Positions 40,299 to 47,949 of a stretch of DNA of 64,000 bases are shown piece by piece. The stretch lies in assembly GCF_003334405.1 (NCBI RefSeq), contig NZ_QOWM01000006.1; one strand, given 5' to 3'. How positions within the stretch are numbered: position 1 is the first letter of the stretch; each line of letters begins with the position of its first letter. A program made the position numbers and the translations under genes. The notes under the pieces were generated by a model, which was not told where the DNA came from, did not search any database, and was given only the letters and a program-made list of their open reading frames with translations. The stretch comes from Escherichia coli (GTDB lineage Bacteria > Pseudomonadota > Gammaproteobacteria > Enterobacterales > Enterobacteriaceae).

Positions 40299-40411
40299 AA
40301 CGTATCCTGATAAATTGATGTTGTGCTGTCTGGCATTTTATCAGTCACATTGGTGGGGGCAATGATTTATCCGTAGCAGCACTGCCAGAAGGTGACAGTG
40401 CTGCTACGTTA

Positions 40412-41650
40412 TCAGGGATAGGTTACCTGGAAAGTACTGGTGGCTTTAAATTCGCCGGGTTCGATAGCAATATTCCCGTCTTGCTTTAATGTTGCCTGGA
40501 AATGAAGAGGCTGTGATGTGCCGTTACCTTGATTAGGGTAAACCCCATCGGAGGTGTCATCTTCGGTTTCATAATCTATATAAACAGAATTCGTATCATT
40601 AGGTTTTAATGTCATTAGCGGATTTTTACTGGTTGCTAAACCTTCAATGAGTACGCCAACGCCTTTGGCGGCAGTGCTTCCAGTAAGCGTATTACCAAGC
40701 AGTTGTGTGTTTTGAGTACCTACTTTTCCAGTGACGAGTTTTGTTTCAATATTACGCACACGAATACAATTCTGAAGCGAGATATCAAAGGGAACAGGTG
40801 AAGCGCCATTTTTAATTGTCCCAGAGCTATATTCTCCCATTCTAACCGTTGAACCATTGACTGATGGCCCGGTAAGTATGGAGGTAAAACATGTTGGTAA
40901 GGTTAATTTGACATTATTCAGTGTGAAATTGACATAAATGTGGTTGCTGTGATCTACAACTTTTGTACCAGGACTGTAGGCCTTAAACGAATAAAGGTAA
41001 TTTGATGAACTGGATAACTGGACTTGCTGATTAAGTGTAGGATCGAAATTAGTATCTGTATAAAATTCAACAGTTATGTTGTGTACTATACCACCAATAG
41101 CCCAAAACTTATCGTAGTCGTCTGCTTTGTTGCAACCCTTAGTTTGTAGATCGCTGTCTGTGACGGAAAAGAAAAATTCTTGGTTGGAAGGATCTCCGAT
41201 ATAGATTCCTGGCGATTGAATGTCAGTTATTGTATCGTATGCAGACCAGACCCTTGATATTAACATGGTGTAATACAGACCAGGAACAGATGTATTAAAT
41301 AGTTTATGTCCGCCATAATCTTTACCTGAATAGACCATGGCATTTTCAATAGTTATTGGACCAGGATTCGCTCTGCCAGATGTATTGCAGTAAAGAATAC
41401 CACCACCGGTACCTGTATCCAGGTATGACCAGTACATTTTTACCCCAGTCGGGCCGAGCTGCGTGGGTTTATAAAAAACCAAGTTGCTTGCTGTTGATGT
41501 GTAATTAAAGGTCATCTGTGCGGCAGTGGAGGGGCCTCGATAGTTATCAACTCCTGCATTATTTCCCACAATAAAACTTGTATATGCACTGACTGTATTA
41601 CAACAAGAATACAGTGCTAAAAAAAGAATGTACCTGAAGATAGTCTTCAT
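40412..41650 (-). CDS. yadC: Fimbrial tip adhesin-like protein
   Basis: 412-aa secreted ORF with two-domain (lectin plus pilin) architecture; last gene of the yad chaperone-usher operon. Confidence 0.85.
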
Positions 41651-41699
41651 TTTTACTCCAATGTTTCTTTATTGTTATGGTTTGCGCTGTTTTTGTTTG

Positions 41700-42296
41700 T
41701 TATTCGTAGTAAATATCCACTAACACATGGCTCATAAGTTGACCAGATGTAACACTCAATGCAGGATCGATTTTTTGCATTCGGGTGCTAAATTTCCAGG
41801 ATGAACCATTCATGTCATCCGACATTACTGGATAAACGGAACGAGATCCGCCTGAAGCATTAAGAACATTGAATGTATTCGCCGAATCCTGAGTAGAAAA
41901 TATAACTACTCCTACATTACTTGCTCCTGACGAAATTTCATTAGCAAATATTTGCCTAGAGCCAGCAGCCATGACACCGCTAAGGGCTCTAAAATCAATA
42001 TGTAACTGATTTAGCACATCGCCAGTTCCCTGTAATGCACAGTCGGATACAGTGATAGTGAACTCTTTTCCACCTGGTTGATAACTTTCAGGAGTAACAT
42101 TACCTGAAAAATATCCCACCCCAACGACGCCAAGATCAATATTACCCTGGTTACTGATTCCGCTTTTGCAGGTGCTGTTTTTTACATTGGCAACAAGGTC
42201 AATATCCTGTCCAGCAATGGCTGGACAGGCGATGCAAAACAGTAATGACAGAAACAGAATTATTCTCTTCATCAGCTTACGTTGAGTGGGATGCAT
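41700..42296 (-). CDS. yadK: Fimbrial minor subunit
   Basis: 198-aa ORF with signal peptide and C-terminal pilin beta-strand motif (..VLVDIYYE). Confidence 0.85.
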   Translation of the reverse strand: MHPTQRKLMKRIILFLSLLFCIACPAIAGQDIDLVANVKNSTCKSGISNQGNIDLGVVGVGYFSGNVTPESYQPGGKEFTITVSDCALQGTGDVLNQLHIDFRALSGVMAAGSRQIFANEISSGASNVGVVIFSTQDSANTFNVLNASGGSRSVYPVMSDDMNGSSWKFSTRMQKIDPALSVTSGQLMSHVLVDIYYE

Positions 42297-42322
42297 ATAT
42301 AGTTCCTGAATCTGTAAGTCTG

Positions 42323-42928
42323 TTAGTTATAGGTTACTGTAAATGTGGCTGGTGCAGAAAACTTACCCGCAGTGACATTGTTTACGGTTTTATTTTTTTC
42401 CACGACCAGGCGTGCACTCATCGGATAATAAACGACCGCATTGGCTGCAGTGGAGATTGTTACCTCTTGTGATGCTGGTGTTACACAGCTAAATTGTGTT
42501 GCACTCCCTGTTGCCGGAGTTACAGTGCTCCAGACTTCAACGGCGACAGCACTTGCTTTATCTGCGGCTGTGGAACCATTTGCAAACCCCGCACCGTCAT
42601 TAGCAGTTCCCTCGCATGTGGCTCGCTTGGTTAATTTTATTTGCGCTTTTTTATTGGGGATACCCGCACAGTCTTTGAATTTGAGTTTGAATGTTTTTAC
42701 TTTGGTCTTGGCATTGATTTCAGAAATATATACATCACCAAAATCAACAACAGAAATGTCCTGATCAGAGTCATTTACTAATGTAGCGGTACAAGTACCC
42801 ATTTCTACAGTAGTAATAACGGTCAGTCCAATACTGTCTGTTGCCGCATAAGAGAGTACGCTGAACAATGAGGCAGCCAAAACGACACTGCTGGATAATC
42901 CATAACGTAAATTTTTAAATGTCATCAT
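42323..42928 (-). CDS. yadL: Fimbrial minor subunit
   Basis: 201-aa ORF with signal peptide and pilin-like C-terminus (..ATFTVTYN). Confidence 0.85.
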   Translation of the reverse strand: MMTFKNLRYGLSSSVVLAASLFSVLSYAATDSIGLTVITTVEMGTCTATLVNDSDQDISVVDFGDVYISEINAKTKVKTFKLKFKDCAGIPNKKAQIKLTKRATCEGTANDGAGFANGSTAADKASAVAVEVWSTVTPATGSATQFSCVTPASQEVTISTAANAVVYYPMSARLVVEKNKTVNNVTAGKFSAPATFTVTYN

Positions 42929-42939
42929 AATTATCCTTC

Positions 42940-46123: not shown

Positions 46124-46157
46124 GCTATGCTTCCTGCGGAATTATATCCTTGCCTGA

Positions 46158-46898
46158 TTACAGCCTGGCATTACCTTCAATTGCGCCACCAAAGTCATTA
46201 ATGGCGTAAAAATGCACTTTTGCAGAATTCGCTTTGCCATTAAGGCCATTGACTTTCATGACCTCATCACTAAATGGTGCAATCATTTTCACATCAATCG
46301 GATAGCGTTTACCGCTAGCTTCTAAATCACCACTGCTAAAAGAGACGTAGTAAGGGGTTGGATTGGTCACTCGTAATGACGCCTTACCTTCTGAACCTGA
46401 CCAGAACCACTTCAGGGCTAACGGGGCTTCAGAGGGATTTCCCTTCAATCCATCCGGGCGATAGAAAAGTTTTATACGTGTGCGAAATGCCAGTTGCAGC
46501 AGGCTTTGATTCGCGACCTTTTCTGCATCTGGTTTTGGTGGAACTTCCAGTACGTTAAACCAGAACACGCTCTCTCTGTCTTTAGGCAGTGAGGTGCTGG
46601 CTGTGTACATTAATTTGATTGTTTGCCCACGTTTGGCATCAATACGCGATACTGGCGGCGTAGCAGTAAAAGGGACTGTAATACTGCCAGGCTCAGCGTT
46701 GTCATCGCCAGTATCTAACCAACTCTGGACAAGCAACGGGTTATTCCCTTTATTTTCCAGACGTACGTTGACACTTTTTTGATCGCTTTTATATATTACG
46801 CGAGTACCCGAAATGACAATGTCCGCAATAGACGATGAACTAAAAGCCATACAGGTTACGAAGCATAAAGCTGTTGTATGTTTGGTGTTAAAAAACAT
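46158..46898 (-). CDS. yadV: Periplasmic fimbrial chaperone (PapD-like)
   Basis: 246-aa ORF with signal peptide and PapD-fold sequence; also known as EcpD. Confidence 0.9.
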   Translation of the reverse strand: MFFNTKHTTALCFVTCMAFSSSSIADIVISGTRVIYKSDQKSVNVRLENKGNNPLLVQSWLDTGDDNAEPGSITVPFTATPPVSRIDAKRGQTIKLMYTASTSLPKDRESVFWFNVLEVPPKPDAEKVANQSLLQLAFRTRIKLFYRPDGLKGNPSEAPLALKWFWSGSEGKASLRVTNPTPYYVSFSSGDLEASGKRYPIDVKMIAPFSDEVMKVNGLNGKANSAKVHFYAINDFGGAIEGNARL

Positions 46899-46926
46899 AA
46901 ACCATCCCTGATAGAGTTAATTAAAA

Positions 46927-46962
46927 CAGGGAATAATATAAAATAGAAATTATTATTCCCTG
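46927..46962 (-). other. Stem-loop between the major pilin gene yadN and chaperone gene yadV
   Basis: cagggaataat - 14-nt loop - attattccctg, perfect 11-bp stem in an otherwise AT-rich spacer. Confidence 0.5.
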
Positions 46963-46995
46963 TATATTCATTCAATCAATTTAACTGGTGAATAC

Positions 46996-47580
46996 TTACT
47001 GATAAGTAATGGTGTATGCAGTGTTAGTTTTTACATAACCAGCAGTTGCTGTTTGGTCTGCGACGGCACGAACGTAAGACGCTTTAAAATCATAAACAGC
47101 AGATTTTGTCGTTGCATCCAGGGCTTTAGTATACACATCGCCAGGGTTGTTAATTTGAACCTGTTTGATAGTGGAACCATCAATATTGTGTAGAGCGATA
47201 TTAACGCCGTCAGATGGGTTGTTAATAGACATGTCGTTGTTCAAAGTCCCTTTGCTGTTACCAAAGAAAACAGAACCGAAGGTCATTTTAGCCGTGCTAC
47301 CTGGATTCGGATTTGCTTTGCTGCAGTCAACGGTGATGCTGAAAGGTTTAGCTTTAGCGCCAACGGTGTCATTCAGTACGCCAGCATCGATTTCACCAAC
47401 GGTTGCGGTTTGCAGCAGGATCAGACCATCCTTGTTACCGCCGTCAACGCGGGTTTCACAGGTGTTATCAACAACCAGACCACTGATATTTAACTGACCG
47501 CCGTCCATATCAGCAGAAGCAGTACCTGCAACCATCGCCAGCATAAGACCAGACAGGGCAAAACCTAATTTTTTAGACAT
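46996..47580 (-). CDS. yadN: Fimbrial major subunit
   Basis: 194-aa ORF with signal peptide; first gene of the operon; pilin C-terminal motif (..YTITYQ). Confidence 0.9.
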
Positions 47581-47949
47581 AAAAATCCTTTAATAAAATT
47601 CCATTAGTCAGACTACATGTTTGAAGAATGACTATTCATGACACAAATAGGAGAAACAAATGTTAGATATTAATGAGCAATGATATTTGTTACCCAAATT
47701 TACAACCATTGTTCATTAGGTCGCCTATTGTGCACTTTAGAAGCTTTTGAACAAATTAAATTTACTTAATTCAAAATTAAGTAAAAATAAGTTCACAAGT
47801 GCAATTGGTTAGGGTATGGAGATGGGATTGATATTTATTTATAGGAAGTTATATTATTTCCGCAAAGAGATGTTTAAACTAAAATCGTAATTAAGGAAAG
47901 AGATGAGATATGATTTTCAGAAAATATTTATATTCGCAATATAAATAAA

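Follow-up and report, generated by a model that had tools for sequence, protein, structure and literature searches.

The Yad fimbrial operon at the folK-panB junction of Escherichia coli: an AT-rich, H-NS-silenced block at a probably ancestral site with exchanged cassette alleles

We consider an AT-rich block of fimbrial genes in a stretch of 64,000 nucleotides of an Escherichia coli genome (NCBI RefSeq assembly GCF_003334405.1, contig NZ_QOWM01000006.1), called the window from here on and numbered from its first letter. The block occupies positions 40299-47949, between panB (39504-40298) and folK (47950-48429), and we are confident that it is the Yad chaperone-usher fimbrial operon (yadN-yadV/ecpD-htrE-yadM-yadL-yadK-yadC), silenced by H-NS and sitting at an ancestral site whose cassette alleles have been exchanged. 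The operon, its AT-richness, its silencing by H-NS and much of its biology are already published; the less familiar point is that the cassette extends into the essential gene folK and includes its last 15 codons. In a wider reading, which we favour with only moderate assurance, Escherichia and Salmonella share a multi-allelic locus for fimbrial cassettes at the folK-panB junction, with at least seven usher lineages (58-70% identical to each other), fixed breakpoints, cassette-specific FolK tails, divergent Yad operons in phylogroups scored as 'Yad-negative', and a palindrome that is perhaps an operator.

The interval consists of seven intact, co-oriented open reading frames (ORFs) on the minus strand, which span 40412-47580 and stand along the window in the order yadC-yadK-yadL-yadM-htrE-yadV-yadN, that of b0135-b0141 in E. 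coli K-12 MG1655. Beginning with the first gene of the operon, they are:

yadN, 46996..47580, minus strand: major fimbrial subunit of 194 aa, at the head of the operon, annotated b0141
yadV (ecpD), 46158..46898, minus strand: PapD-like periplasmic chaperone, 246 aa; NF007398, 472 bits (cut-off 285)
htrE, 43526..46123, minus strand: outer-membrane usher, 865 aa, GTG start; NF007337, 1701 bits (cut-off 830)
yadM, 42940..43509, minus strand: minor fimbrial subunit, 189 aa, annotated b0138; the longest ORF extends to 43551
yadL, 42323..42928, minus strand: minor fimbrial subunit, 201 aa; NF011795, 448 bits (cut-off 392)
yadK, 41700..42296, minus strand: minor fimbrial subunit, 198 aa; NF011794, 311 bits (cut-off 132)
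yadC, 40412..41650, minus strand: two-domain tip adhesin, 412 aa; NF007268, 885 bits (cut-off 382)

The coordinates match those of MG1655 b0134-b0142 gene by gene. Over its first 50 kb the window differs from MG1655 by a 1-bp indel and seven single-base differences, none of them inside that interval (40299-47949). In sequence, coordinates and gene order the block is therefore the same as b0135-b0141; it is also 100% identical in many other E. coli genomes. The fimbria encoded by the K-12 operon is likewise of the chaperone-usher kind, repressed by H-NS and cryptic, yet functional. Every ORF in the block is fimbrial, and a PADLOC search returns no defence-system match.

The identity of the products is supported by full-length NCBIfam matches, which exceed the curated cut-offs in the case of the adhesin, YadK, YadL, the usher and the chaperone, as well as of the neighbouring PanB and FolK. 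In NCBIfam, YadN and YadM come closest to the Salmonella subunits StaA and StaD, both under the cut-off, and the next-best matches of YadL are StaE models. Residues 26-246 of YadV match the solved structure 5GHU ('Probable fimbrial chaperone YadV', E = 5e-148), with PapD and FimC following at E values of 1e-26 to 1e-28. HtrE aligns to its model over residues 3-865, and the database cluster 98% identical to it bears the Pfam domains PapC_N, Usher and PapC_C. The five subunits (YadN, M, L, K, C) begin with hydrophobic, signal-peptide-like N-termini and end in a Tyr-containing pilin strand (YadN ...TYQ, from the motif ...ITYQ; YadM ...IYQ, from ...FIYQ; YadL ...TYN; YadK ...YYE; YadC ...TYP). In YadC the Pfam Fimbrial domain is limited to residues 265-411 and residues 1-250 have no family match, which suggests a separate receptor-binding region of some 240 N-terminal residues followed by a C-terminal pilin domain. 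A two-domain model of YadC is reported in PMC13245861, where antibodies against YadN as the major subunit are also employed. A sequence search of YadC against solved structures gives no match, so that its receptor-binding half has no detectable relative among solved adhesins. The sequence therefore holds an usher, a PapD-like chaperone, pilin subunits and a two-domain tip adhesin, the parts of a chaperone-usher operon. All seven genes are under purifying selection (ratio of nonsynonymous to synonymous divergence, dN/dS, 0.04-0.21 between K-12 and CFT073), which indicates that the operon and its cassettes are functional and not decaying; the lectin half of YadC evolves fastest (0.21, against 0.04 for the usher).

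The block stands apart from the rest of the window in base composition. Its content of guanine plus cytosine (GC) is 0.417, compared with 0.527 for the remainder of the window, and the lowest value among non-overlapping windows of the same size is 0.496 (mean 0.525, standard deviation 0.011). At third codon positions (GC3) the seven yad genes range from 0.34 to 0.41 and the other 36 genes from 0.49 to 0.63, with no overlap (Mann-Whitney p = 6e-8); the yad genes are the seven lowest of the 43, at 0.378 compared with 0.566. Their Karlin codon bias relative to the pool is 0.50 versus 0.34, and rare codons make up 4.8% versus 2.6%. The fastest-evolving genes, yadC, yadK and yadL, are also the most AT-rich (GC3 0.34-0.35). 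The regulatory region in front of the operon is strongly AT-rich:

spacer upstream of yadN, 47581..47949, minus strand: 369-bp AT-rich regulatory region between yadN and folK, GC 0.266; given in the literature as an H-NS target and 'promoter island'

In all ten other lineages compared, Salmonella included, the spacer upstream of yadN has a GC content of 0.23-0.30 whatever that of the gene bodies, which is 0.42-0.46 in the cassettes of E. coli, E. albertii, Salmonella serovar Kotte and another enterobacterium and 0.51 in the common Salmonella cassette. It is thus the AT-richness of the regulatory region that is conserved. An initial annotation of this DNA, made from the letters alone, described seven co-oriented minus-strand genes for a complete pilus, with a major subunit, chaperone, usher, three minor subunits and a two-domain adhesin, and this is borne out by the ORFs and by the NCBIfam and Pfam matches, gene identities and architecture alike. 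Its impression by eye of a block more AT-rich than the flanking housekeeping genes holds when computed, as does the very AT-rich upstream region of roughly 370 bp. The comparison of GC and codon usage that it called for finds the block distinct in GC, GC3, Karlin bias and rare codons.

Silencing by H-NS is documented in published work. The gene yadN appears in three independent H-NS datasets, is induced 2.4-fold by overproduction of SlyA, and is flagged as genomic island (GIST) in the same table (PMC5797941 Table 2). The yadN/folK spacer is the H-NS-associated 'promoter island' 156927_379 (PMC3661553 Table 1), which by coordinate conversion lies at about 47624-48002 of the window. Deletion of hns raises yad promoter activity more than 100-fold, with complementation, and YadN is detected on the surface of hns mutants; human serum and infected tissue induce yad, and yad deletion mutants are attenuated, in a 2026 study of its role in bloodstream infection that also describes Yad as not phase-variable (PMC13245861). 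In that paper, ArcA, low temperature and anaerobiosis are cited as inducers of yad in K-12, and D-xylose-containing glycans and annexin A2 are cited as ligands of YadC. In enterohaemorrhagic E. coli (EHEC), yad is expressed from its native promoter in three transcriptional units, with ethanolamine as a cue (PMC11287998), and fitness effects in vivo are reported for EHEC and for extraintestinal pathogenic E. coli (ExPEC; PMC11287998, PMC13245861). Constitutive or forced expression in K-12 gives functional fimbriae (Korea 2010, as cited in PMC5797941 and PMC11287998). The claim of the initial annotation that the block is H-NS-silenced is thereby supported, by the datasets, the promoter island and the derepression upon hns deletion; it had named flank-like composition, and constitutive expression without H-NS binding, as observations that would speak against it, and neither is found. 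Its remark that the receptor and the inducing conditions are 'poorly defined' is partly outdated by the published ligands and inducers (PMC13245861, PMC5797941, PMC11287998), and the experiments that it proposed have largely been done in published work, with the outcomes that it expected.

We turn to the question of how the operon came to lie between folK and panB. The same seven-gene operon is found at this junction in 11 of 11 complete loci, which comprise six from E. coli, one from a further E. coli lineage, and one each from E. albertii, another enterobacterium, Salmonella serovar Kotte and a typical Salmonella enterica. The sole near-empty junction seen is an IS1 deletion scar. No tRNA gene lies in 36000-52000, no flanking direct repeat was found at the block, and no integrase is encoded in it, so that neither the usual companions of a genomic island nor a patchy presence with empty sites is seen. 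Wurpel et al. 2013 (PMC3559732) describe Yad as core-associated and ancestral, equate it with Salmonella Sta at the same locus, and treat the two as one fimbrial type. Judged by this synteny, the yad operon appears to have occupied the folK-panB junction for a long time, in Escherichia as well as in Salmonella.

While the site appears old, its occupants differ widely. Within E. coli at least five cassette lineages have diverged deeply (usher identity 58-87%), and the distance between lineages inside the species is as large as that separating E. coli from Salmonella. Compared with K-12, the usher is 87% identical in the CFT073 type, 75% in the 23AR0303 type, 59-60% in the O157/CV261 and EC20 types and 63% in Salmonella; the adjoining PcnB is 99-100% identical within Escherichia. 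Searches with the usher genes in 5,426 complete E. coli genomes find the K-12 type in about 3,300 (at least 90% nucleotide identity), matches below 90%, mainly of the CFT073 type, in about 700, and the 23AR0303, O157 and EC20 types in 461, 421 and 191. Salmonella, too, has more than one cassette lineage at the site: the Kotte locus (L012) and that of S. enterica (L007) encode PcnB proteins 98.7% identical and ushers only 65% identical.

A case in point is strain EC20. Its PanB, RpnC, PanD and YadE proteins are identical to those of the K-12-like genome and its flanks are 99% identical in DNA, while its usher is only 59% identical; homology stops sharply at window position 40312 and resumes at 47997, and versus four clade II genomes the right-hand break falls at 47990-47997. 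Synonymous divergence (dS) between EC20 and the K-12-like genome is 0.010-0.076 in the flanks, and the synonymous sites of the cassette are saturated (proportion of synonymous differences, pS, 0.67-0.77). Deep alleles at one site, sharp breaks within conserved flanks, and incongruence with these flanks are what is seen, and comparable recombining surface-antigen cassettes are rfb and fliC. Homologous recombination in the conserved flanks appears to have moved the deeply diverged, mostly AT-rich cassette alleles from one lineage to another.

Divergence is also raised just outside the cassette. Between K-12 and CFT073, dS is 0.43 in panB and 0.26 in codons 1-142 of folK, compared with 0.10 in pcnB; between K-12 and CV261 it is 0.33 in panB and 0.24 in panC, compared with 0.02 in pcnB. 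The raised values in panC/panB (38641-40298) and folK 1-142 (47997-48429) are consistent with hitch-hiking on an old polymorphism.

Several accounts of the AT-rich composition have to be weighed. A possible but less probable one holds that the AT-richness arose in place, during vertical residence, by drift of rarely expressed genes and/or selection for H-NS silencing, with the alleles as an old balanced polymorphism. The ancestral site agrees with it, as do the low GC content of the upstream spacer in every lineage independent of that of the gene bodies, and the concentration of AT-richness in the fastest-evolving genes. Mutational bias in E. coli runs from GC to AT, which counts in the same direction, and the common Salmonella Sta cassette (GC 0.511, usher GC3 0.68) indicates that composition is not fixed in the family. 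What speaks against residence alone is EC20, where flanks close to K-12 around a cassette of saturated divergence need a recent recombinational import, and serovar Kotte, whose usher is nearer to that of E. coli clade II (70%) than to that of the other Salmonella cassette (65%) and so suggests exchange between genera.

It is far less probable that the block is a recent acquisition of the E. coli lineage, an islet that was inserted at the panB-folK junction and still shows the composition of an AT-rich donor. The low GC content and distinct codon usage would fit such an origin, H-NS targets are often xenogeneic, and the genomic-island flag on yadN points the same way. Against it stand the occupation of the junction in all complete loci, whether from Escherichia, from Salmonella or from the other enterobacterium, the lack of tRNA, integrase and flanking direct repeats, the IS1-mediated deletion as the only near-empty junction, and the fact that, among the named matches listed, ushers more than 63% identical to the K-12 lineage are all from Escherichia. 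Synteny largely refutes this account. The initial annotation had taken the block for a horizontally acquired islet wedged between panB and folK; insertion does not stand, while movement as replacement of cassette alleles does. That yad in K-12 is a cryptic relic in decay, now devoid of function, is hardly credible, since the lack of expression in laboratory culture (literature) and the recurrent insertions and deletions at the locus in other strains are set against seven intact frames of full length versus curated models, the low dN/dS, the fimbriae obtained on forced expression in K-12 (Korea 2010, as far as the citing papers report it) and the fitness effects in vivo (PMC13245861, PMC11287998).

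Insertion sequences are observed at the locus in several strains. In 23AR0303 an IS1 lies at the yadK-yadL position (L003 6210-6907), CH4784 has an IS1-linked deletion of nearly the whole operon (L006 4412-5428), and BE104, TUM9812, AR96.3A and M15 (H1, H6, H15, H26) carry IS1 or IS3 inside the matched locus.

With the operon read as an ancestral resident with exchanged alleles, the right edge of the cassette deserves attention. By composition and by comparison this boundary is not at the folK stop codon; it lies about 47 nt inside folK (47996/47997).

folK 3' end, 47950..47996, minus strand: last 15 codons and stop; by composition and comparison part of the variable cassette

These last 47 nt have a GC content of 0.277, compared with 0.524 for the remainder of folK. 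The FolK proteins of ten lineages (including loci L002, L003, L005, L007 and L010-L014) are conserved up to ...VFPDG and then continue into different tails of 15-18 residues, mostly ending in Trp; with the break inside folK, the C-terminal tail of FolK differs with each cassette. An AlphaFold model of FolK built on a shallow alignment (mean predicted local distance difference test score, pLDDT, 58.6) is too poor for a fold search, and a literature search of incomplete coverage found no paper on this tail variation.

The depth of the alleles also bears on how Yad is counted. In the 2026 survey (PMC13245861), where the usher threshold is 80%, phylogroup E and nearly all of phylogroup D are scored as without Yad. 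We find that E. coli genomes below 80% usher identity still have a seven-gene operon at this site, in synteny, which belongs to a divergent lineage:

divergent operons: L002 12434-19398; L004 12435-19411; L003 5012-11580; L010 5051-12010

The phylogroups scored 'Yad-negative' would accordingly bear a divergent Yad-type operon and not none, a proposal that we hold at the same moderate strength as the multi-allelic reading to which it belongs.

Several non-coding elements lie in and beside the block.

yadN-yadV spacer hairpin, 46926..46963, minus strand: 13-bp stem followed by a U-run, in a 97-bp spacer
post-yadC hairpin, 40372..40408, minus strand: 16-bp GC-rich stem, 4 nt past the yadC stop; -31.4 kcal/mol, z = -4.7
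panB promoter-like site, 40335..40362, minus strand: TTGCCC-16-TAAAAT, with TG before the -10 hexamer
palindrome TTTACTTAATT-ttg-AATTAAGTAAA, 47753..47793, no strand assigned: perfect arms of 11 bp; lies upstream of yadN, about 190 bp from its ATG

The fold of 46890-47000, around the first hairpin, has z = -2.85. A hairpin of different sequence stands in this spacer in each of eight other cassette lineages, with a U-run after most; it beats shuffled sequences in seven of the eight (z about -2.1 to -3.1), the remaining one being EntG50 (z -0.35). By analogy with better-known fimbrial operons it is probably a partial terminator (attenuator) that gives an excess of major-subunit mRNA. A search of Rfam returns nothing but a chance mir-786 match (E = 0.57) on this hairpin. 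For the hairpin after yadC, a seven-allele alignment has 7 of 11 pairs still pairing despite changes on both sides, and a T-run follows the Clade II and Salmonella versions; we infer an operon terminator or a 3' stabiliser that may insulate panBC. The hexamers of the panB promoter-like site are kept in 7 of 7 aligned alleles, Salmonella included, as the surrounding sequence diverges, and the site appears to mark the conserved left edge beside the cassette.

The palindrome in the upstream spacer may be a candidate, undescribed operator. Arms of 11 bp are reached in 1% of 1000 dinucleotide shuffles (p about 0.01). Palindrome-like repeats of the form ACTnAA-N7-TTnAGT occur at similar positions in CFT073, 23AR0303, ZF8-1/CV261 and Salmonella; in CFT073 and Salmonella the changes in one arm are matched in the other. 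A k-mer conservation test over ten upstream spacers gives no signal beyond composition, as shuffled AT-rich sequences score equally high, and by eye the palindrome does not fit the SlyA consensus TTA-N6-TAA.

Sites resembling promoters occur in the block at 2-4 times their density in the flanks (19 versus 5 and 12). Their number is that expected from composition (20 in the scanned region versus 20.4 in shuffles) and carries no extra signal. The best sigma-70-like match of the region is TTGACA-18-TATATT (46768-46797, plus strand, 11 of 12 positions), antisense inside yadV and directed towards yadN; intragenic sites of this type are reportedly suppressed by H-NS in AT-rich genes.

Combining these elements with what is known of the family, a working scheme for the operon can be proposed. 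Transcription would start within the AT-rich spacer upstream of yadN, where in laboratory culture H-NS silences it, as the literature indicates. Loss of H-NS relieves the silencing, as do SlyA and similar antagonists; so do serum, low temperature and anaerobiosis via ArcA, and in EHEC ethanolamine (literature). The hairpin and U-run after yadN, a structure conserved across lineages, would probably end part of the transcripts and leave the major subunit in excess. The five subunits, given their signal-peptide-like N-termini, would be exported to the periplasm, where YadV would capture them by donor-strand complementation, and HtrE would polymerise them in order, with YadC at the tip, YadK/L/M as adaptors and YadN as the rod; family knowledge and domain matches point to both steps, and the solved YadV structure to the first. 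The N-terminal half of YadC binds xylose-containing glycans and annexin A2, according to the literature. At the distal end, the GC-rich hairpin after yadC probably ends the operon before the separate panB promoter.

Several points weigh against this picture. The data on H-NS binding, induction and ligands come from the cited papers, and both the attenuator role and the order of subunit assembly are argued by analogy with Pap and Fim. A consensus scan of the minus strand of the spacer does not find the yadN promoter. The H-NS nucleation motif TCGATAAATT is not enriched (65 matches versus 59 expected in the window, about 10 of them in the block), and silencing must therefore depend on general AT-richness. 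The K-12 version of the hairpin after yadC has no U-tract or T-run. The lectin-domain fold of YadC is not confirmed by an AlphaFold model, which on a shallow alignment reaches a mean pLDDT of 58.8, falls below 60 in the N-terminal half, and is too poor for a fold search.

It is useful to set the operon beside known fimbrial systems. One of these is Salmonella Sta (staA-G), which shares with yad the seven-gene architecture and the folK-panB junction, besides the subunit matches given above; its usher is 63% and its adhesin 28% identical. The two differ in composition, the Sta cassette having the higher values quoted above versus 0.417 (usher GC3 0.39) in yad, and in Sta only the upstream spacer is strongly AT-rich. 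With type 1 (fim) and P (pap) fimbriae yad has a common assembly logic, in the PapD-like chaperone, the PapC/FimD-like usher and the two-domain tip adhesin, and all have a hairpin after the major-subunit gene; unlike them, the yad block has neither an invertible switch nor a regulator gene of the PapB/PapI type. The yeh, sfm and elf/ycb operons of K-12 are, like yad, poorly expressed in the laboratory, bound by H-NS and induced by SlyA overproduction (PMC5797941). Their loci and usher lineages differ from those of yad, and the depth of cassette lineages was compared for yad only.

Some observations concern the neighbourhood and the strain. Between panD and panC lies rpnC/yadD (37665-38567, plus strand), a gene of the Transposase_31/Rpn-family nucleases, which is present in E. 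albertii, in E. coli L013, in another enterobacterium and in the Salmonella Kotte locus; the typical Salmonella locus L007 lacks it, with panC directly next to panD. On the folK side, pcnB is annotated from an ATT start at 49821-49823 (465 aa), and its longest ORF begins at a TTG 21 nt upstream (472 aa); an AUU start is a known peculiarity of this gene. The window belongs to a close K-12-like strain and is not the MG1655 reference itself. The indel is a 1-bp deletion (TTTTTTT to TTTTTT) near 24970, in a T-run downstream of acnB; one of the single-base differences is at 38378, inside rpnC/yadD, and the six others lie within 1-24900. Upstream of 24971 the window is offset by 1 bp from MG1655, and reused MG1655 coordinates go wrong there.

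The cassette, FolK-tail and 'Yad-negative' points are modest additions to a largely published picture, and each has a consequence. As the yad locus is ancestral at its site, AT-richness and H-NS silencing alone are no evidence of recent insertion. A survey that requires usher identity of at least 80% to score Yad misses whole lineages, the O157-type among them, which affects claims on phylogroups 'lacking' Yad. Finally, HPPK (FolK), an essential enzyme of the folate pathway whose K-12 form is a common structural and drug-target model, shows in nature a hypervariable C-terminal tail that is tied to a neighbouring surface-antigen cassette.

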